Below the pieces are notes generated by a model. The model saw only the letters and a list, made by a program, of their open reading frames with translations, was not told the DNA's origin and searched no databases. A stretch of DNA of 45,351 bases from a virus: the IMG/VR virus record IMGVR_UViG_3300046457_000122, positions 1 to 45,351 of that record; one strand, written 5' to 3'. Shown here piece by piece: positions 1-45,351 of the stretch. A program made the position numbers and the translations under genes. Every line of letters begins with the position of its first letter. The first letter of the stretch is position 1.

Positions 1-127
1 GTCGGTATCCCTGCGTAATAATGTCGATAACATAATTAAGCTCTTCCGATCCGCTTTCCCTAATCGTGTCAAAGCACCATGAGGTCCATTCAACTCCCAT
101 TTTTGCCCACCTAACGATTCGATTTGT
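1..127. repeat. Terminal direct repeat, exact copy of 45225..45351
   Basis: Base-for-base identity read along all 127 positions. Confidence 0.95.
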
Positions 128-556: not shown

Positions 557-3500
557 TTATTTAGGAAATCCTTGCATAGTTGTTCTAGCAATTTCATTTC
601 TCTCAGACAACAAAGGCTCTATCTGTCTTCGCTTCTCAGCAGAACTCATTGTTTTGTCAGCCTCTATCTCACGAATAGATGCATTGATCTTACTAATTTT
701 TTTCGTTGCTTTCTCCAATACCTTGAGATCACGGTTTCGCGTAAAGGATTCTTCGTTGAGATTGGCTGAAGCTTTTTGGCTAGAAAGCTTTTCTTTTGTA
801 TCGTACATTTTTTCTATTGATTTGGTACTTTGTAACGGATCGACTGTAAATGCTTTTACGAATGGCAATTGTTCCATTCTTTTTTCTGGTGGATTAGGAC
901 GATCTACTAACCCAGTCTTCTTGAGAATAGCATCTGTAGCAGTTGTCGCATAATTACCAAGACCAGCAGTAAGCCCCTGAATCGTGCTATCCATAATACG
1001 TGGGGATGAGAAGTTTTTAAAAGCTCCTTTTCCATCAGTTGCTTTATTTACTACCCCAGCGAGAAACCTAGCTGTTTCAGTAGTTCTTACTGGATCGTAC
1101 TGATCTTTATATTCTAATCCTTGTTCACGTTGTGGAATAATTGGACCTTGTCGAAAGAAAGAGTAATTGGACATGCCCTCTATAAATGGCCACAAACCCG
1201 TGATTTGTGCAGGTATTGCAGCATCACCAAGCATGCGATTAACAAAACCATCAAATGCATCAGGATCATTTTCTTTCGTAAATTCCAATGCGCGCTCTGG
1301 CAGATTAGCGAATAATGGTGCTATATCAAATGGTTTAGGAATCCGGGCTACTGTATCGGTGCCAGGTATAGCAACAAGCCAAAAGGTGTCGCGCATCCAG
1401 TCAGGAGATTCACTTATAGTTTCTTTTTGCTTCTCGTTTGCGAATCGACTATTCAATGCATATATTCCTAAAGTTGGTAGCGTAGTAGACACAATCATAC
1501 GGGTGGTTGTGCCGATAGGATCTTCTTTAATTGCGCGAATCAATTTTGATTTACCCTGAATGTTCGCATTAAGGAAAGCAACAATTCTATTAGCTTGACG
1601 AATACCCGAACCAGCACGCGCGAAGTCCATCAAATCACGTGAACGATATGCCGCTTCTTGAGGACTTACACCTTTCCGCAATGCCGCTCGATACTCACCT
1701 ACTTTTGTTGCAGATTCCGTTACATCTGTAATTGTTCTTAGCATGTTTATGAAGGCTTTACCAGTAAAAATGTTTACAACCTTCTTGCTCGGCTTCTCCT
1801 TTAACACAGATTCCAAGGCTTTGCGGTGAATGTTTCTATCCATAGATAGCACGTTACCGTATGCTCCAAGATTATCAATCCACTCTTGATACAGTTTTCC
1901 CTTTGAAATGGACTGGATTAACCCAACGCCAAAGTCAGTAATCGGATTAAATCCACTTTTGCTCACTACATAAGCTTGCAGAATGTCGCGCATTGGATTC
2001 CGCAAGCTAAATTCAGGGGTGAGCGTGGCACCAGCACGTAATAAAGAAGCTGGCTTAGATAAAATGTTCATCAGCATATTCCCTGATTCTTTATCCAAGT
2101 TCATTAGAGCTCTGTACACTTCTGGTTCTACCTCATACTTAACACTCTCACCGTTCTCTTTTACATTTATCACATTCTTGCGACCAACTTGTTCGTCTGG
2201 ACCTAAACGACGGATAAAGTTTTCATCCACATCTTTTTTGGCAAGCTTTGAAATCTCCATAGCAACTTTGTTCCGTTCGGATGCATTCACAGTTTGAAAG
2301 ATATTACGAACCATATTTTCAAGTGGATCGACTACTTTCTTTTCAGATCCTTTTAATGCCTTGATTGGACTAGCAACGTTGGCAAGAGATTTTGATAACC
2401 CACCAGCAAACGCCTCGGGGGTATCTTCGAAAGCACGGAATAAAGGTATATAATTCTTCCACCGATTATCCAGTACATCAGCTAGCTCTTTACTGATTAC
2501 ACCACTATCAACAAGCTCTTTCATCATATCCTTACCGACTTGTACCAACTCTTTACGTGCTGCTTCCATCTCTTCTGAACCATACTTTTGAATAATTGCT
2601 GCAATCTCTTTATCCGTAAAACCTGATTTGTAGCCAGCGGCGTTAACGTCCTTAGCGTGTACAGCAAGTGCGTACTTTCCGATATCGTCTGCTGTATATC
2701 CCGCCTTTTCTGCTGCTGTTACAACTGGCGCAAGACGTTGTTTAACGATCTGGTTTGCCTTTTCTGGCGCACCTTTAAATAACCTAGCTTTCTTATACAA
2801 ACTATTTTCTGCACTTGCTACGCGTCCCGTTACGCGCTTCTCCAATCCAGCCAAAGACTGAACATCATCCTCAAATTGTGTTCTTATTCTTTCGATCTTT
2901 TGAGAAAATGATGTCCTGCGTTTGTTGACATCCTTACTAATTTTCGCGCTGAATGTGTCAGCGTCACCGATATCCTGACTATTAAACCTTACGGCATCAT
3001 CGCCTTCTTTTGTTGCTAGACGTTCCTGTTTTCTCAGTTCTTCTTTTGAGGCACGGTAAACTTTTTCTGCATGTGGGCGGAAATCTTCTCCTACTTCTTT
3101 GACCATCTCTTCCGCCCAGTCAGCGAATTTAATGGTGCCTTTACCCATCTTAGCAGCACCAACAATTGACCAGTCTTTCCAATCTGGTAGGGGGTTCGAG
3201 TTAAGATTATTTTTACGCTTATTAATACGTTCTCTAGCAGCTTTTTCTGCTTCGTCCAAGTAATTGTATACCCGGTCCCTAACTCGCGGTTGCTGGATAG
3301 TTCTGACGATTTGCTCTGCTTCTACTTCTGGTGTTATTCGTTGCAACTCAGCAGTGCTAGCTTTGGCATTAGCTGCTTCTAATCTTTGTTGCCGCACACG
3401 TAGATACTTAGGTACAGCAGGATCGTTTATATCAAATGTTTGCTGACGATTAATGGACGATTCACTCACCCGTTGAACAGGTTCACGACTTGATCCAGGA

Positions 3501-41615: not shown

Positions 41616-41657
41616 AAGCTCTGCTAACCTTAATGGGTCGGCAGAGCTTCGTTTTTT
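41616..41657. terminator. bidirectional terminator
   Basis: AAGCTCTGC-N16-GCAGAGCTT followed by CGTTTTTT (plus strand) and preceded by AATAAA (T-rich on the minus strand). Confidence 0.7.
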
Positions 41658-41961
41658 ACTTAATGATATTCCTAACAGTGCTCAAAATTTCGTCCGTATT
41701 TTTACGGAACTCATCATAATGTTTGTCGTCAAGTAAAGTATGTATGTGTTCAGTAGATTCTTCAAACTCATTTATGACTTTGGTTAATTTTAATTTGTAT
41801 GCTGATAAGTAAATATCGCTCAAGTGGTCATCAATATTGTAGTCGCCAATATCTGTTTTTGGTACACCATGTTTATTCAATAATTCTGCAATGTCTTGTT
41901 CGCTTAATCCAATTCCACTTAAATTATATGTAAGCTTAACCACTTTTGCTGGTGTATCCAT
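41656..41961 (-). CDS. hypothetical protein (101 aa) with its own promoter
   Basis: TTTAGGAGGATACATAT then ATG 41961. Helical and acidic. No family recognised. Confidence 0.65.
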   Translation of the reverse strand: MDTPAKVVKLTYNLSGIGLSEQDIAELLNKHGVPKTDIGDYNIDDHLSDIYLSAYKLKLTKVINEFEESTEHIHTLLDDKHYDEFRKNTDEILSTVRNIIK

Positions 41962-41994
41962 ATATGTATCCTCCTAAATATGATATCTGTTGAT

Positions 41995-42024
41995 ATTGTA
42001 TTCCAAATGGAAATTGAATTGCAA
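41995..42024 (-). promoter_or_regulatory. promoter of 41656..41961 with an embedded palindrome
   Basis: Minus strand TTGCAA-18 nt-TACAAT. The spacer contains TTCCA-tt-TGGAA. Confidence 0.55.
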
Positions 42025-42061
42025 TGAATAAAAAATTTGTGTTACCATAAGAATAGATAAA

Positions 42062-42083
42062 GGGACCGGGTGCAACCGATCCC
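42062..42083 (-). terminator. candidate terminator of the toxin mRNA
   Basis: Minus strand GGGATCGG-ttgcac-CCGGTCCC followed by TTTATCTATTCTTAT. Confidence 0.5.
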
Positions 42084-42134
42084 CCTGTACAACTTACCGC
42101 TATAAGAGCGGTCGGCACGTTAAGGTTTGATCAA

Positions 42135-42171
42135 GAAATAGACCGAATCCTTAGCCAGGGCGGTCTATTTC
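42135..42171. terminator. 11-bp perfect hairpin overlapping the toxin stop codon
   Basis: GAAATAGACCG-N15-CGGTCTATTTC, followed on the plus strand by CTTTTAT. Confidence 0.5.
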
Positions 42172-42248
42172 CTTTTATGGAAAGAAAGTATCAGAATCAC
42201 CAATGTTGCAAATTGAATCATCAACATCAGCGTGTCTTTAACTTCCAT
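42165..42248 (-). CDS. Hol-Tox-like (putative holin-like) type I toxin peptide, 27 aa
   Basis: MEVKDTLMLMIQFATLVILILSFHKRK. SD AAAGGGGGTG 5 nt before the ATG. Extended -10 TGGTATAAT at 42314..42322. One TM helix plus a basic tail, as in Firmicute holin-like toxins. Confidence 0.6.
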   Translation of the reverse strand: MEVKDTLMLMIQFATLVILILSFHKRK

Positions 42249-42355
42249 GGCTTCACCCCCTTTACAGGAGATTAGCCGACCGCCCTTGATAGCCGTTATG
42301 TCGTACAACCCAGATTATACCACATTAGTCCTCTATTAAGAGGGCTTTTTATTTT
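42249..42355 (+). ncRNA. predicted antisense antitoxin sRNA covering the toxin 5' UTR and SD
   Basis: A plus-strand-only terminator at 42328..42355 has no plus-strand gene to serve. Weak candidate promoter TTGAAT-18-TTTAAC (42213..42242). The transcript would be fully complementary to AAAGGGGGTG and the toxin leader. Confidence 0.3.
42328..42355 (+). terminator. plus-strand rho-independent terminator
   Basis: GTCCTCT-atta-AGAGGGC followed by TTTTTATTTT. Confidence 0.6.
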
Positions 42356-42405
42356 GTTAATAGTCACCTACAATACAAACAAACACTAAACAGGTGGTGC
42401 ACAAG

Positions 42406-43842
42406 ATGGAATCTACACTAAAAATGATACGAGCTGCTGGGTATGGACGGGTGAGTACCGAAGAGCAGGCTAACGAAGGTCACTCTCTCGATGCTCAGAG
42501 AGAATTCAACCTAAAATATATAGAAAATGAAAAGTGGATATTGTCTGGATATTTTGAGGACCCCGGATACTCAGGCAAAAACCTGAACAGACCAGACGTG
42601 AAACGATTGATACAAGAGATTAAAAGCAAAAACTTAGACGCATTGGTGGTTCATAAATTGGACCGCTTGACCCGTGATATAAAAGACTTATATGAGATGC
42701 TCCAAATGTTTGATGAATATAACATTAAGTTTGTTTCTATATCCGAAAAGATAGATACAGATACCGCCATGGGACGAATGTTTGTTTTTATGTTGGGTAT
42801 ATTTGCTCAATGGTACCGGGAGAATTTATCTGAGGAAGTTACAAAAGGGATGCGCGCTCGAGCTAAAAAAGGGATACCTAATGTATTTGTAAATATGTTT
42901 GGATACACTCGCACTCCTGAGGGTGAACTTATTATCAACGAGGAAGAGGCTAAATGGGTAAGATGGATATTTGAACAATACTTAGATGGCAAAGGAACTG
43001 CTACTATCGCTAAGGAACTAAACAATATGAACATTCGCCGATCTCGCGGCGGTAGATGGAGCCAAACAAAGGTTATGGATGTTTTAGAAAACCAACACTA
43101 CGTCGGAAATATAACCTGGAAGAGCAAAAAAGATGATGAGGAAGACCGCATAATAAGAAAAGGCGCTCATATAGGAATCATTGATGAAGAAACGTTTGAC
43201 CGGGTACAACGTTGGATACAGCGACGTAGAGACGGGCTTAGATCACGTAATTCCTACAACTATGCATTCGGTGGTGTCTTGCGTTGTGGTAAATGTGGCG
43301 GTCGATACAAAGGTAAATATGCAATTAGTGGTGGAACGCTAACATACAATTATGTTTGCTCGAATAAAGAACGGTATCATACATGCGACCAATCATCTAT
43401 ATCGGAGACCAAACTTGTGAAAATGTTATTTAAGTCACTTGATATGGATAATGAGAATTTATTTTGGAAAGATGATGTAAAGGAATCCAATAACTCTGAA
43501 GAAGAGCAAATTAGAAGAGCAATCAAAGCAAGCGAAGAAAGACGGGAACGTTGGCAAATGGCATATGGGGACGGTTTTATGCCCTATCAGGACTTTAGCA
43601 ATCGTATGAAAGAAGAGATGCAACGTGTTGTTGAACTTGAGGAAAAACTAAGTGGGCTGCCGGGTGCTGTAGTATCGACGCTTGACCCCGCAGAAGTAAT
43701 AAGCATAATGCAAGATATTAAAGAGAATTGGTGGTACATGGAACGATCAACGCAAAAGCAATTAATACAAGAGTTGTTCCAAGATATTTCAATTTTAAAA
43801 GATGGGAAAGAATGGGGAATTAAAGGGATAGCATTCGCATAG
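42406..43842 (+). CDS. int: large serine recombinase (integrase)
   Basis: YGRVSTEEQ catalytic-Ser motif and resolvase fold, a recombinase domain, a Cys-rich zinc ribbon (CGKCGG...C..C..HTC) and a C-terminal coiled coil. ATG 42406 after AGGTGGTG. Confidence 0.9.
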   Translation: MESTLKMIRAAGYGRVSTEEQANEGHSLDAQREFNLKYIENEKWILSGYFEDPGYSGKNLNRPDVKRLIQEIKSKNLDALVVHKLDRLTRDIKDLYEMLQMFDEYNIKFVSISEKIDTDTAMGRMFVFMLGIFAQWYRENLSEEVTKGMRARAKKGIPNVFVNMFGYTRTPEGELIINEEEAKWVRWIFEQYLDGKGTATIAKELNNMNIRRSRGGRWSQTKVMDVLENQHYVGNITWKSKKDDEEDRIIRKGAHIGIIDEETFDRVQRWIQRRRDGLRSRNSYNYAFGGVLRCGKCGGRYKGKYAISGGTLTYNYVCSNKERYHTCDQSSISETKLVKMLFKSLDMDNENLFWKDDVKESNNSEEEQIRRAIKASEERRERWQMAYGDGFMPYQDFSNRMKEEMQRVVELEEKLSGLPGAVVSTLDPAEVISIMQDIKENWWYMERSTQKQLIQELFQDISILKDGKEWGIKGIAFA

Positions 43843-43891
43843 TTTGTACCTGTGTACCCTCTGGTAAGCCAACGGGTGCATAGGTACAAAC
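43842..43891. other. candidate attP core for the serine integrase
   Basis: 50-bp imperfect palindrome, 19 of 25 positions symmetric, with perfect outer 10-bp arms GTTTGTACCT/AGGTACAAAC. The centre is AA at 43866..43867. It begins at the last base of the int stop codon. Confidence 0.45.
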
Positions 43892-43898
43892 TTTTAAC

Positions 43899-43922
43899 AT
43901 AAAAAAGAGCCCCGAAGGGCTC
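43899..43922 (-). terminator. terminator of the lysis cassette
   Basis: GAGCCC-ttcg-GGGCTC followed by T6 on the minus strand. Overlaps the holin stop. Confidence 0.75.
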
Positions 43923-44286
43923 AAGCAGATTTCTTTGCATTTGCATTGTAATCTTGAACTGCTTTTTCTATTACAGCCCGTATCTCCTGTTCAGTTACAT
44001 TTAATCCCATAACCCGCAGTCTACCAATCACATAGTCAATTGCTTCCTGTAGTTTCTTGTCTCCTTCGAAGTCCTTGAACACCGATTCCGCATAGGCAAC
44101 CGCTTCGACGCCCACCTTATGCAAGAACTCTCTATCCTTGACCGACGTGTTGGATACATAGTATTCTGTAGCCTTCTGCTGAGCCTTTTTAAGAGCACTT
44201 GTAGCAATCGTAGCCAATAAGCCAATTAGTGCAGTTACAATGGTTAATACGTAGGGTTGAGCTGCTTCTATTAATTGTTCCTTCAT
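43921..44286 (-). CDS. holin (LL-H-like layout)
   Basis: Single N-terminal TM helix YVLTIVTALIGLLATIATSAL followed by a charged helical domain. AAGAGGAGTGA RBS. Immediately follows the endolysin. Confidence 0.55.
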   Translation of the reverse strand: MKEQLIEAAQPYVLTIVTALIGLLATIATSALKKAQQKATEYYVSNTSVKDREFLHKVGVEAVAYAESVFKDFEGDKKLQEAIDYVIGRLRVMGLNVTEQEIRAVIEKAVQDYNANAKKSA

Positions 44287-45224: not shown

Positions 45225-45351
45225 GTCGGTATCCCTGCGTAATAATGTCGATAACATAATTAAGCTCTTCCGATCCGCTTTCCCTAATCGTGTCAAAGCA
45301 CCATGAGGTCCATTCAACTCCCATTTTTGCCCACCTAACGATTCGATTTGT
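45225..45351. repeat. Terminal direct repeat, exact copy of 1..127
   Basis: Base-for-base identity read along all 127 positions. Confidence 0.95.

Follow-up and report, generated by a model that had tools for sequence, protein, structure and literature searches.

The 430-bp gap 5' of the integrase gene of a Paenibacillus phage holds what is, judged by its sequence, an ordinary member of the bsrG/SR4 family, an RNA-controlled toxin gene whose product is most likely restrained by an antisense RNA that covers the 3' end of the mRNA and not its 5' end. We consider it quite probable that the locus is a self-contained bsrG/SR4-family cassette of ~355 bp, carried by a temperate Paenibacillus phage with a circular 45.2-kb genome as part of its lysogeny module. 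The window, that is the whole stretch of viral DNA that we analyzed (45,351 nucleotides), carries this cassette at 42006..42361 with the toxin on the minus strand; these limits are those of a block that is common to homologues in unrelated genomic contexts (blastn). The locus is real and lies well past what is expected by chance. Every feature that an earlier note on this DNA had listed was found in the sequence at its coordinates, and the families of the neighboring genes (Pfam, PHROG) place the locus in a phage lysogeny module. The content of the gap is settled by this analysis, and the mechanism is corrected to one in which the antitoxin would act from the 3' side, as in bsrG/SR4.

Both a protein profile and an RNA profile place the locus in this family, and they bear out the earlier description of a type I toxin–antitoxin locus of the bsrG class with a Hol_Tox peptide. 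The window peptide, searched against the Hol-Tox family as the note had proposed, scores 38 bits on Pfam Hol_Tox (PF16935; cutoff 23.3, E = 1.5e-9), and B. subtilis BsrG scores 34.5 bits on the same model. BLASTP of the 27-aa peptide against BsrG gave no pairwise alignment, so the link between the two peptides lies at the profile level alone. The Rfam BsrG model (RF01412) matches 42062..42307 on the minus strand with 64.5 bits (gathering score 55), end to end over model positions 1-259. The local scan gave E = 2.3e-14; a scan of the entire window gave E = 7.3e-13 and no other match above the gathering score. This model was passed by 13 of the 19 homologue loci scanned and gave 210 bits for the SPbeta control. 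Other low-scoring Rfam matches in the region (Trp_leader, MicC and others) were set aside as noise. The statement that the locus is unannotated has to be qualified, as an identical 27-aa protein carries the NCBI name "putative holin-like toxin" in 41 Paenibacillus contigs. Genome pipelines call the peptide but miss the antitoxin RNA, its promoter and the two antisense terminators; the cassette coordinates could seed the annotation of these elements.

The toxin ORF (42165..42248, minus strand) encodes the 27-aa peptide MEVKDTLMLMIQFATLVILILSFHKRK, a member of the Hol_Tox/BsrG family with a single transmembrane helix and a KRK tail, and is served by the ribosome-binding site AAAGGGGGTG (the reverse complement of 42254..42263). 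Besides the Pfam match and the identical NCBI protein, the ORF is supported by purifying selection: pN/pS is 0.18 in 37 distinct homologous 27-codon ORFs, in which the variable columns number 17, 7 and 25 by codon position. The query of the homologue search was a 47-aa version of the ORF that is extended to a TTG codon. This extension is probably not real, since it occurs in one annotated homologue alone and its N-terminal part is unconserved. No conserved overlapping leader ORF of the mok type was found among the annotated homologues.

The toxin promoter (42314..42322, minus strand) consists of an extended -10, TGGTATAAT, which is the reverse complement of 42314..42322, without a good -35; the -35 position is filled by the hairpin of a distal terminator that is described below. 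Across the homologue alignment the -10 is kept as TGTGGTATAAT or TGnTATAAT. The predicted product is a bsrG-like mRNA of ~250 nt (42055..42307, minus strand) that starts near 42307, based on the Rfam match and the fold. Its fold energy is -110.4 kcal/mol, compared with -68.4 +/- 4.4 for shuffled sequences (z = -9.6), and none of the 200 shuffles is as good.

In this fold the 5' end of the mRNA is paired with its 3' UTR. The helix P1 is formed by mRNA nt 1-33 (42275..42307, minus strand), which include AGGGCGGUCGGC, and by a 3' arm at 42086..42116 that includes GCCGACCGCUCU, and it is found by minimum-free-energy folding, covariation and RNAalifold. It had been noticed earlier that the leader segment AGGGCGGUCGGC (42275..42286) is complementary to GCCGACCGCUCU (42105..42116), and this fold-back is real: in the minimum-free-energy fold the two segments pair with each other within a 5'-3' helix of 31-33 nt, and this helix is conserved with covariation in homologous loci. 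At the base of P1, 91% of the positions are paired in 50 homologues and four of the five pairs show compensatory changes. The 3' arm falls within the region that is complementary to the predicted antitoxin. A second element, SL1 (42255..42272, minus strand), is a 7-bp hairpin that hides the ribosome-binding site (AUCUCCU/AGGGGGU); it is seen in the fold and is 96.5% paired in homologues, where one column pair is CG in 27 sequences and UA in 19. The third element, SL3 (42133..42173), contains the stop codon and has 11 perfect pairs, or 13 if the flanking A-U and G.U pairs are counted. The complement of SL3 on the plus strand is the predicted proximal terminator of the antitoxin. In the 50 homologues its core pairs are almost purely Watson-Crick, with G.U pairs very rare, whereas P1 and SL1 are rich in G.U; such a near-absence of G.U would fit a hairpin that is needed on both strands. 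The mRNA ends in an intrinsic terminator (42059..42086, minus strand; terminator scan, fold of -16.7 kcal/mol), the position of which is conserved among homologues while the stem sequences differ. The hairpin at the stop codon and this minus-strand terminator (42086..42059), both of which the note had pointed out, are thus present and look like functional parts of the module.

The layout of P1, SL1, SL3 and terminator recurs when the homologues and SPbeta bsrG are folded one by one, and the predicted architecture of the window mRNA matches the probed structure of bsrG, in which P1 is formed by nt 1-35 paired with 232-262 (PMC3834814). Covariation was analyzed by MAFFT alignment, RNAalifold and pair counts, and it bears out the 5'-3' pairing in homologous loci, where the note had suggested looking: the fold is kept in 50 homologues with compensatory changes. 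In the 50-sequence alignment, 80% of the cells are paired, compared with 41-52% when the partners are slid, and the covariation score is 0.182 compared with 0.07-0.095 for the slid controls, a comparison that favors the tested structure because it was derived from the window sequence itself. The pairs changed on both sides number 34, a value reached by 1 of 500 shuffles; as the shuffles preserve the composition of each column and ignore how the sequences are related, these counts of 0-1 in 500 should not be read as probabilities. RNAalifold predicts P1, SL1 and SL3 independently. A different pairing, between the leader segment GGGCGGUC and the 3' side of SL3 (GACCGCCC), appears in the consensus of the Rfam model. 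It was rejected as the main fold because both the energy minimum and the probed bsrG structure favor the 3' UTR as the partner of the leader, and because SL3 is conserved as a hairpin among the homologues.

The antitoxin promoter is predicted just beyond the toxin terminator, at 42019..42048 on the plus strand, with a -35 of TTGCAA (42019..42024), an 18-nt spacer and an extended -10 of TGtTACCAT (42040..42048). Of 51 homologous loci, 44 have an antisense TG-extended -10 with a TTGxxx -35 at 108-140 nt beyond the stop codon, and sequence conservation ends just past the -35. The promoter scores of the antisense and the sense strand show a modest contrast (10.6 vs 9.0), so the argument for this promoter rests on its positional conservation. 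The earlier note had placed a separate antisense RNA over the leader and the ribosome-binding site. This part of its model does not hold, as no promoter-like site was found on the plus strand within the ORF or the 5' UTR, either in the window or in most homologues. Since the sole conserved antisense promoter lies beyond the toxin terminator, the antitoxin would overlap the 3' end of the mRNA, and such a 3' overlap was shown by experiment for bsrG/SR4 (PMC3834814, PMC2965217).

From this promoter, the proximal terminator and homology, an SR4-like antitoxin with a short form of ~125 nt is predicted (42055..42180, plus strand). Over its whole length it would be the complement of toxin mRNA sequence, from the last five codons through SL3 and the 3' arm of P1 to the toxin terminator; as-bsrG/SR4 and bsrG overlap by ~123-129 nt at their 3' ends. 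The proximal terminator consists of the SL3 complement followed by UUUCCUUUUAU and reaches to ~42180, with -18 kcal/mol on the plus strand. Its U-tract is supplied by the C-terminal lysine codons of the peptide and is interrupted, and a simple terminator scan did not call it. In bsrG/SR4 it is the loop of the SR4 terminator that touches the SL3 loop first, and SL3 is probably the key element of the window locus, both as the antitoxin terminator and as the site of first contact.

A second, distal terminator (42327..42355) is a plus-strand-only one and abuts the toxin -10, as seen by terminator scan, fold and homologues. Its stem (42327..42346) is followed by TTTTATTTTG and has a fold energy of -10.9 kcal/mol (z = -4.1). 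It falls inside the shared cassette block. Within 110 nt upstream of the toxin start, an antisense-strand terminator is present in 25 of 53 loci and a sense-strand one in 7 of 53; the stem sequences vary between lineages, and SPbeta also has such a terminator. Outside the cassette follows the gene of a large serine integrase (42394..43842, plus strand; Pfam Resolvase, Recombinase and Zn_ribbon_recom, PHROG 95), which is co-directional with the predicted antitoxin. The distal terminator probably stops antitoxin read-through, bounds a long form of ~300 nt and insulates the integrase gene. The earlier claim about this plus-strand terminator therefore stands in part: it exists, it is part of the cassette and an RNA that reads through to it would cover the leader, but the start of that RNA would be the promoter on the 3' side.

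Taken together, the family, the conserved fold, the conserved positions of promoters and terminators and the purifying selection on the ORF are shown by the sequences. On this basis a mechanism of the bsrG/SR4 type can be proposed, for which we infer the transcripts, the toxicity of the peptide, the dependence on RNase III and the biological role. The weak promoter, with an extended -10 only, would produce a minus-strand mRNA of ~250 nt that is almost fully structured and encodes the 27-aa single-helix membrane peptide. Its first 33 nt would be held by the 3' UTR in P1, the ribosome-binding site in the 7-bp SL1 and the stop codon in the 13-bp SL3. The convergent promoter just beyond the toxin terminator would produce a plus-strand antisense RNA that is the complement of the mRNA from SL3 through the 3' arm of P1 to the toxin terminator, with its own 3' end at the SL3 complement. 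By homology with SR4, this RNA would touch the SL3 loop first, zip along the 3' UTR, giving a duplex as a substrate of RNase III, and displace the 3' arm of P1, which would free the GGCU of the leader. The freed GGCU may then lengthen the hairpin of the ribosome-binding site as far as the start codon, so that translation is blocked, and the second plus-strand terminator, by the toxin promoter, would halt antisense read-through before the integrase gene. Folding with the 3' side blocked agrees with this step: once the 3' arm of P1 is occupied, SL1 is predicted to be extended by GGCU/AGCC and grows in silico from 7 to 11 bp in the window mRNA. The SPbeta control, likewise in silico, goes from 5 to 9 bp and reproduces the direction of the published change. 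In bsrG/SR4 this helix was found by experiment to lengthen from 4 to 8 bp.

A less likely option is that the antitoxin has two forms. The proximal terminator would be leaky, and a substantial, functional pool of read-through RNA of ~300 nt (42055 to ~42353) would pair with the entire toxin mRNA, the ribosome-binding site included; the distal terminator would form the 3' end of a precursor that is trimmed by 3' exonucleases back to SL3. The interrupted proximal U-tract is consistent with such leakage, the distal terminator belongs to the cassette in several lineages and in SPbeta, and PnpA of B. subtilis trims SR4 precursors with extended 3' ends. Yet, about half of the homologues lack a distal terminator by the pattern used, and an insulator role accounts equally well for its presence. 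A further step, which appears unlikely to us, is that read-through from a leaky proximal terminator masks the ribosome-binding site while the distal terminator sets how much of it leaks into the integrase gene. If this were true, the state of the toxin–antitoxin pair would be linked to integrase expression, and the siting of such cassettes beside unrelated integrases would be functional and not incidental.

Another question is whether the peptide is an addiction toxin at all. It might be a phage-encoded membrane effector, for example one that, like ComI, inhibits competence or the uptake of DNA, or an accessory factor of lysis timing, the level of which is tuned by the antisense RNA. The family is named "holin-like", and BsrG makes no pores, and its effect on envelope synthesis is slow; these points could suit such a role. 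The peptide also matches NCBIfam ComI (NF052249), although with 23.4 bits it stays well under the equivalog cutoff of 55, as does BsrG with 20 bits. A canonical phage holin was ruled out by size, as holins typically have 60-150 aa and one to three transmembrane helices compared with the 27 aa of the peptide; this identity also fails because the phage has its own holin (43921..44286, Phage_holin_6_1), which adjoins an Amidase_3 endolysin, and because BsrG forms no pores. The phage's own lysis genes speak against a membrane effector as well, as do the RNA architecture, which is that of a tightly silenced toxin, and the finding that the cassette mostly occurs in chromosomes, in multiple copies and without a link to phages. 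We regard this reading as improbable and prefer that of a toxin under antisense control.

The mode of control raises the comparison with hok/Sok, on which the earlier note had leaned. In such a scheme a short antisense RNA over the leader would end at the distal terminator stem (42327..42346), and the fold-back would keep the mRNA inert until its 3' end is processed. The 5'-3' helix is indeed real, the plus-strand-only terminator exists as a cassette part at a conserved position, and an antisense transcript that reaches it would cover the ribosome-binding site. However, neither the window nor most homologues have a promoter-like site on the plus strand within 42165-42327, the single antisense promoter that is conserved lies on the 3' side, a detectable distal terminator is missing in 28 of 53 homologues, and the homologous system that was dissected by experiment uses 3' overlap. 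The scheme is thus highly improbable for this locus. The analogy with hok keeps its value as a functional likeness, but a bsrG-type fold-back is remodelled by an antitoxin that binds on the 3' side and is not relieved by 3' processing.

The cassette is found well beyond this phage. Its loci number more than 50 and come from Paenibacillus, Saccharibacillus, Cohnella, Cerasibacillus and Desulfosporosinus; 10 viral contigs carry it as well. By blastn over 53 loci, the homology in foreign contexts begins at 42006-42025 and ends at 42322-42361, as defined by L003-L006, L001, L044-L050 and the Desulfosporosinus loci. Four cassettes are adjacent to an integrase (L019, L045, L047 and L055); the adjacent integrases are unrelated, being a serine integrase at 30% identity or tyrosine integrases. 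The same block occurs in ~45 loci without a nearby integrase. A blastn search of 41950..42400 against 50,697 GenBank phage records gave no match, and tblastn of the peptide gave weak matches (55% identity, E = 0.2-0.3) in two Listeria phages and Brevibacillus phage Emery. Just past the stop codon of the window integrase there is a 24-nt inverted repeat (43841..43892), which is a better candidate for attP than the gap. That the gap is attP or a regulatory region of the integrase, with an incidental small ORF, is suggested by its place directly 5' of the integrase and by the four integrase-adjacent cassettes, but is effectively refuted by the copies without an integrase, the unrelated types of the adjacent integrases, the codon-position bias and pN/pS of 0.18 in the ORF, the matches to protein and RNA family profiles and the better candidate at 43841..43892.

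According to a review from 2019, txpA/bsrG-like systems occur in a small number of Bacillus species and in a single Paenibacillus. The present analysis extends the reach of the family to more than 50 loci in which the RNA architecture is conserved and the cassette has defined boundaries. For the biology of the phage it adds one further prophage-borne type I module with a putative role, and by analogy the cassette may serve prophage retention or stress-linked growth arrest.

Among the known type I systems, the window locus is most readily compared with bsrG/SR4. Both belong to the same protein family and the same RNA family by profiles, and both reside in a prophage. In both mRNAs P1 is present with a terminator right behind it, SL1 carries the ribosome-binding site and the stop codon falls in the 5' part of SL3. 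On the antisense side, the elements predicted for the window correspond to those of bsrG/SR4: a convergent promoter past the toxin terminator, an antitoxin terminator that is the SL3 complement and a further antisense-strand terminator upstream of the toxin promoter. For the window, too, the helix around the ribosome-binding site is predicted to grow longer once the 3' part is occupied. There are also differences. The window peptide has 27 aa and is 11 residues shorter than BsrG (38 aa), and the mRNA is predicted at ~250 nt compared with 294-297 nt for bsrG. The predicted antitoxin of ~125 nt starts at the toxin terminator, while SR4 has ~180 nt and starts ~60 nt beyond it; therefore the 5' stem-loops of the predicted antitoxin cannot match those of SR4. 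In the free mRNA SL1 is predicted to have 7 bp compared with 4 bp in bsrG, and the distal terminator abuts the toxin -10, whereas that of SPbeta lies ~60 nt upstream. The host here is Paenibacillus, and the window system is known from its sequence alone.

The other systems are more distant. Like hok/Sok of plasmid R1, the window locus has a small putative membrane toxin, an extensively folded mRNA in which the 5' and 3' ends pair, and predicted antisense control. Sok, however, targets the 5' leader of hok at the mok/hok ribosome-binding region, and 3' trimming opens the fold-back and activates hok, whereas the window has its antisense promoter on the 3' side and lacks a mok-like leader ORF; neither sequence nor profiles relate it to hok. 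The txpA/RatA pair of the B. subtilis skin element is likewise prophage-borne, with a convergent antisense RNA, 3' overlap and RNase III-dependent decay. It differs in the size of TxpA (59 aa) and in that RatA leaves the ribosome-binding-site helix unchanged, and neither Rfam nor Pfam connects it with the window locus. The bsrE/SR5 and bsrH/as-bsrH pairs of the B. subtilis P6 and skin elements are type I systems with 3' overlap and similar RNA structures, although the window has no Rfam match other than BsrG. According to a review, toxins of the BsrG type and the BsrE/H type are exchanged within conserved loci, which parallels a toxin swap that we observed among the homologues, at L055.

The locus upstream of the integrase is a new member of a known toxin–antitoxin family, and it is recognised by both Pfam and Rfam. 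Its 27-codon toxin ORF (42165..42248, minus strand), encoding MEVKDTLMLMIQFATLVILILSFHKRK, the ribosome-binding site AAAGGGGGTG (complement of 42254..42263) and the extended -10 element TGGTATAAT (complement of 42314..42322) were all found where the earlier note had placed them. That note also compared the peptide to holin-like toxins, and indeed it matches the Pfam Hol_Tox model PF16935 (E = 1.5e-9; 38 bits, with a cutoff of 23.3). The B. subtilis toxin BsrG, from the bsrG/SR4 system of SPbeta, matches this model too (34.5 bits), and thus Hol_Tox is the BsrG protein family. Rfam model RF01412 (BsrG; gathering score 55) is matched over its whole length at 42062..42307 (minus strand; 64.5 bits, E = 2.3e-14), the sole Rfam match above the gathering score across the 45-kb window; as a control, the SPbeta locus reaches 210 bits and 13 of 19 scanned homologue loci also exceed the gathering score. 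By these three profile results the locus belongs to one family, of the bsrG type. A ComI-like role for the peptide finds only matches far under the NCBIfam cutoff of 55 (23.4 bits for the window peptide, 20 bits for BsrG), which hint that ComI, the competence inhibitor of plasmid pBS32, may be in the same broad peptide family as BsrG and the window peptide. A role as a holin is countered by the phage encoding its own.

NCBI already has an identical protein on 41 contigs, under the name 'MULTISPECIES: putative holin-like toxin [Paenibacillus]', so standard pipelines call the ORF while the RNA parts go uncalled. Across 37 distinct 27-codon ORFs the variation is mostly in third codon positions (pN/pS = 0.18), and from this comparison the peptide is seen to be under purifying selection. 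One P. polymyxa genome carries an annotated 47-aa version of the toxin with an N-terminal extension (homologue protein P0001; 42165..42308, minus strand), which is probably a mis-called start, the extension being in the 5' UTR and not conserved.

An exact 127-bp terminal direct repeat (1..127 and 45225..45351) indicates that the contig is circularly closed and that the temperate phage genome, at 45,224 bp, is complete. The cassette is located at the lysogeny and lysis end of this Paenibacillus polymyxa-group temperate phage, next to a large serine integrase (42394..43842, plus strand) and near genes for a holin, an Amidase_3 endolysin, three helix-turn-helix regulators and small membrane proteins. 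The suggestion that the cassette DNA is attP, the recombination site, fails: the block is coding, it is present in ~45 loci without an integrase, and a better candidate is an imperfect inverted repeat right after the integrase stop codon (43841..43892), with 24-nt arms that are 83% complementary and 4 nt apart. The repeat is a plausible attP for this integrase. Beyond it, at ~43905..43922, there is a bidirectional terminator, and the related viral contig L055 ends exactly at its integrase stop codon.

Peptide searches gave 42 genomic loci, 10 viral-contig loci and one further locus, in Paenibacillus, Saccharibacillus, Cohnella, Cerasibacillus and Desulfosporosinus; over 450 nt their DNA is 48% to 88% identical to that of the window. 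The block shared between unrelated contexts extends from ~42006-42025 to ~42322-42361, which defines a cassette of ~355 bp. It often appears in several copies per genome, some in tandem, with up to three dispersed copies; tandem or nearby duplicates are seen in Saccharibacillus and Paenibacillus (three in locus L033, 2449..3408; two each in L035 and L017). In L043 a ~23-nt internal duplication (~2501..2594) breaks the toxin reading frame, and this copy is probably a pseudogene; in L011 divergence sets in just before the stop codon. A Paenibacillus-like cassette is also present on a 515-nt contig (L022) whose label is that of the alphaproteobacterium Puniceibacterium and which is probably contamination.

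The copies that are not beside an integrase mostly have ordinary chromosomal genes around them, for example for DEAD-box helicases or radical SAM enzymes. Besides the window and L055, the cassette lies divergently beside integrases of unrelated types in L019, L045, L047 and L007: those of L019 and L045 are serine recombinases ~30% identical to that of the window, and that of L047 is a tyrosine integrase. A second tyrosine integrase, found by Pfam among the upstream neighbours, is most likely that of L007, 50% identical to that of L047. A 101-aa protein with no Pfam or PHROG match is encoded shortly after the toxin and in the same direction (41656..41961, minus strand), and it accompanies the cassette in L047 and L002 with 86-89% amino-acid identity. 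L055 (IMGVR_UViG_2548876793_000002, 1080..1500) is from a sister phage whose integrase is 92% identical to that of the window. It retains the promoters of toxin and antitoxin as well as the toxin and distal terminators, and its toxin ORF, MHISFGEVLTFGIFLIALLTYIDKRK (Hol_Tox, 25.8 bits; no Rfam match), is a different one with its own 5'-3' helix; the comparison identifies it as a toxin swap within a conserved regulatory frame.

The 253-nt minus-strand toxin RNA folds to -110.4 kcal/mol, compared with -68.4 +/- 4.4 in dinucleotide shuffles (z = -9.6), and each of the three terminator-type hairpins folds better than its own shuffles; the features described here are beyond chance. In the predicted fold, nt 1-33 of the mRNA pair with 3' UTR 42086..42116 in a long helix, P1. 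The leader contains a 7-bp hairpin, SL1, bearing the ribosome-binding site, and inside the ORF there is a further hairpin, after which comes the 13-bp SL3 (42133..42173), which bears the stop codon. The toxin terminator (42086..42059) comes directly after P1. The previously noticed complementarity of leader 42275..42286 to 3' UTR 42105..42116 is inside P1, and the hairpin over the stop codon and the downstream minus-strand terminator proposed with it were likewise recovered. Single-sequence folds of each homologue and of SPbeta bsrG show the same layout.

The covariation check of the 5'-3' pairing was done by projecting the window structure, itself from one of the 50 sequences, onto their sequence-based MAFFT alignment. 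Standard pairs are formed in 80.2% of cells, against 41-52% with partners slid, and the covariation score is 0.182 against 0.07-0.095. Both sides are changed in 34 pairs, a number reached by 1/500 shuffles in a control that takes no account of relatedness among the sequences. The P1 base is 91% paired with compensatory changes in 4 of 5 pairs, and SL1 is 96.5% paired, one pair being CG in 27 sequences and UA in 19. P1 is thus kept with compensatory changes, and RNAalifold without a supplied structure agrees, finding P1 (base and upper part) as well as SL1 and SL3.

In the bsrG/SR4 system, toxin and antitoxin are convergent, and their RNAs share an overlap of ~123-129 nt at the toxin 3' end (PMC3834814, PMC2965217). 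A plus-strand promoter is predicted just outside the toxin terminator, with -35 TTGCAA (42019..42024) and, after an 18-nt spacer, extended -10 TGtTACCAT (42040..42048). At the equivalent place in 44 of 51 loci, the best antisense promoter has a TG-extended -10 and a TTGxxx -35 with a spacing of 17-18 nt. The distance from the stop codon is 108-140 nt in these homologues and 163 nt in SPbeta; in the P. polymyxa group, sequence conservation ends immediately past the -35. As neither the ORF nor the leader has a promoter-like site on the plus strand, in the window and in most homologues, while the 3'-side promoter is conserved, the predicted antitoxin is placed at 42055 to ~42180 (plus strand), and the separate leader-covering antisense RNA of the earlier note is rejected. 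The transcript would start near 42055 and be complementary, in turn, to the toxin terminator, the P1 3' arm and SL3. TTGCAA is its own reverse complement, usable as -35 on both strands, and a minus-strand promoter TTGCAA-18-TACAAT (42024..41995) could drive the 101-aa gene.

The plus-strand SL3 complement (-18 kcal/mol), followed by UUUCCUUUUAU, is the predicted proximal antitoxin terminator. Its U-tract is the reverse complement of the lysine/arginine codons at the ORF end (AAA AGG AAA TAG, minus strand; 42165..42180), so the peptide's basic tail and the antitoxin terminator would constrain each other; the same overlap is found in homologues and SPbeta. Among the 50 sequences the SL3 core is almost purely Watson-Crick and many G.U pairs occur in P1 and SL1, as expected if SL3 folds on both strands and P1 and SL1 on the sense strand only. 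In B. subtilis, the loops of the SR4 terminator and bsrG SL3 touch first.

The plus-strand-only terminator upstream of the toxin, reported before, was found with its stem at 42327..42346, followed by TTTTATTTTG. In 25 of 53 loci the 110 nt before the toxin transcription start contain a terminator on the antisense strand, which usually abuts the toxin -10, compared with 7 of 53 for the sense strand. This recurrence, stems that vary by lineage (P. polymyxa group, Desulfosporosinus, L036, L041, SPbeta) and its place inside the block common to unrelated contexts argue that this distal terminator is no accident of the window. In our reading it halts antitoxin read-through; B. subtilis SR4 has precursors with extended 3' ends that are trimmed back by PnpA (PMC6562991). 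With antitoxin and integrase co-directional and only ~45 nt from the terminator to the integrase start codon, it would also keep transcription from a constitutive promoter out of the integrase gene.

Based on homology and folding, a dual action as in SR4 is likely, in which RNase III-dependent decay of the duplex would be combined with induced occlusion of the ribosome-binding site. Bound antitoxin was mimicked by folding the mRNA with its 3' part unavailable: the leader, left without P1, pairs its GGCU with AGCC just before the start codon, and SL1 lengthens from 7 to 11 bp, with similar lengthening in six homologues. These GGC/GCC pairs are also in the RNAalifold consensus and are better conserved than the P1 top. 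The SPbeta control lengthens from 5 to 9 bp, the same direction as the experimental change in bsrG from 4 to 8 bp.

A 2019 review already has txpA/bsrG-like systems in 'a Paenibacillus species', and what we add is incremental: where the cassette begins and ends, how widely it is distributed, the conservation of the distal terminator, the lysine codons used twice and the toxin swap in a sister phage. The predicted layout of P1, SL1, SL3 and terminator equals that of the probed bsrG mRNA, in which P1 joins nt 1-35 with nt 232-262, the ribosome-binding site belongs to SL1, SL3 carries the stop codon in its 5' part and the terminator comes one nucleotide past P1 (PMC3834814). BsrG forms no pores and is slow in its action on envelope synthesis, and the window peptide differs from it in being shorter, at 27 aa.
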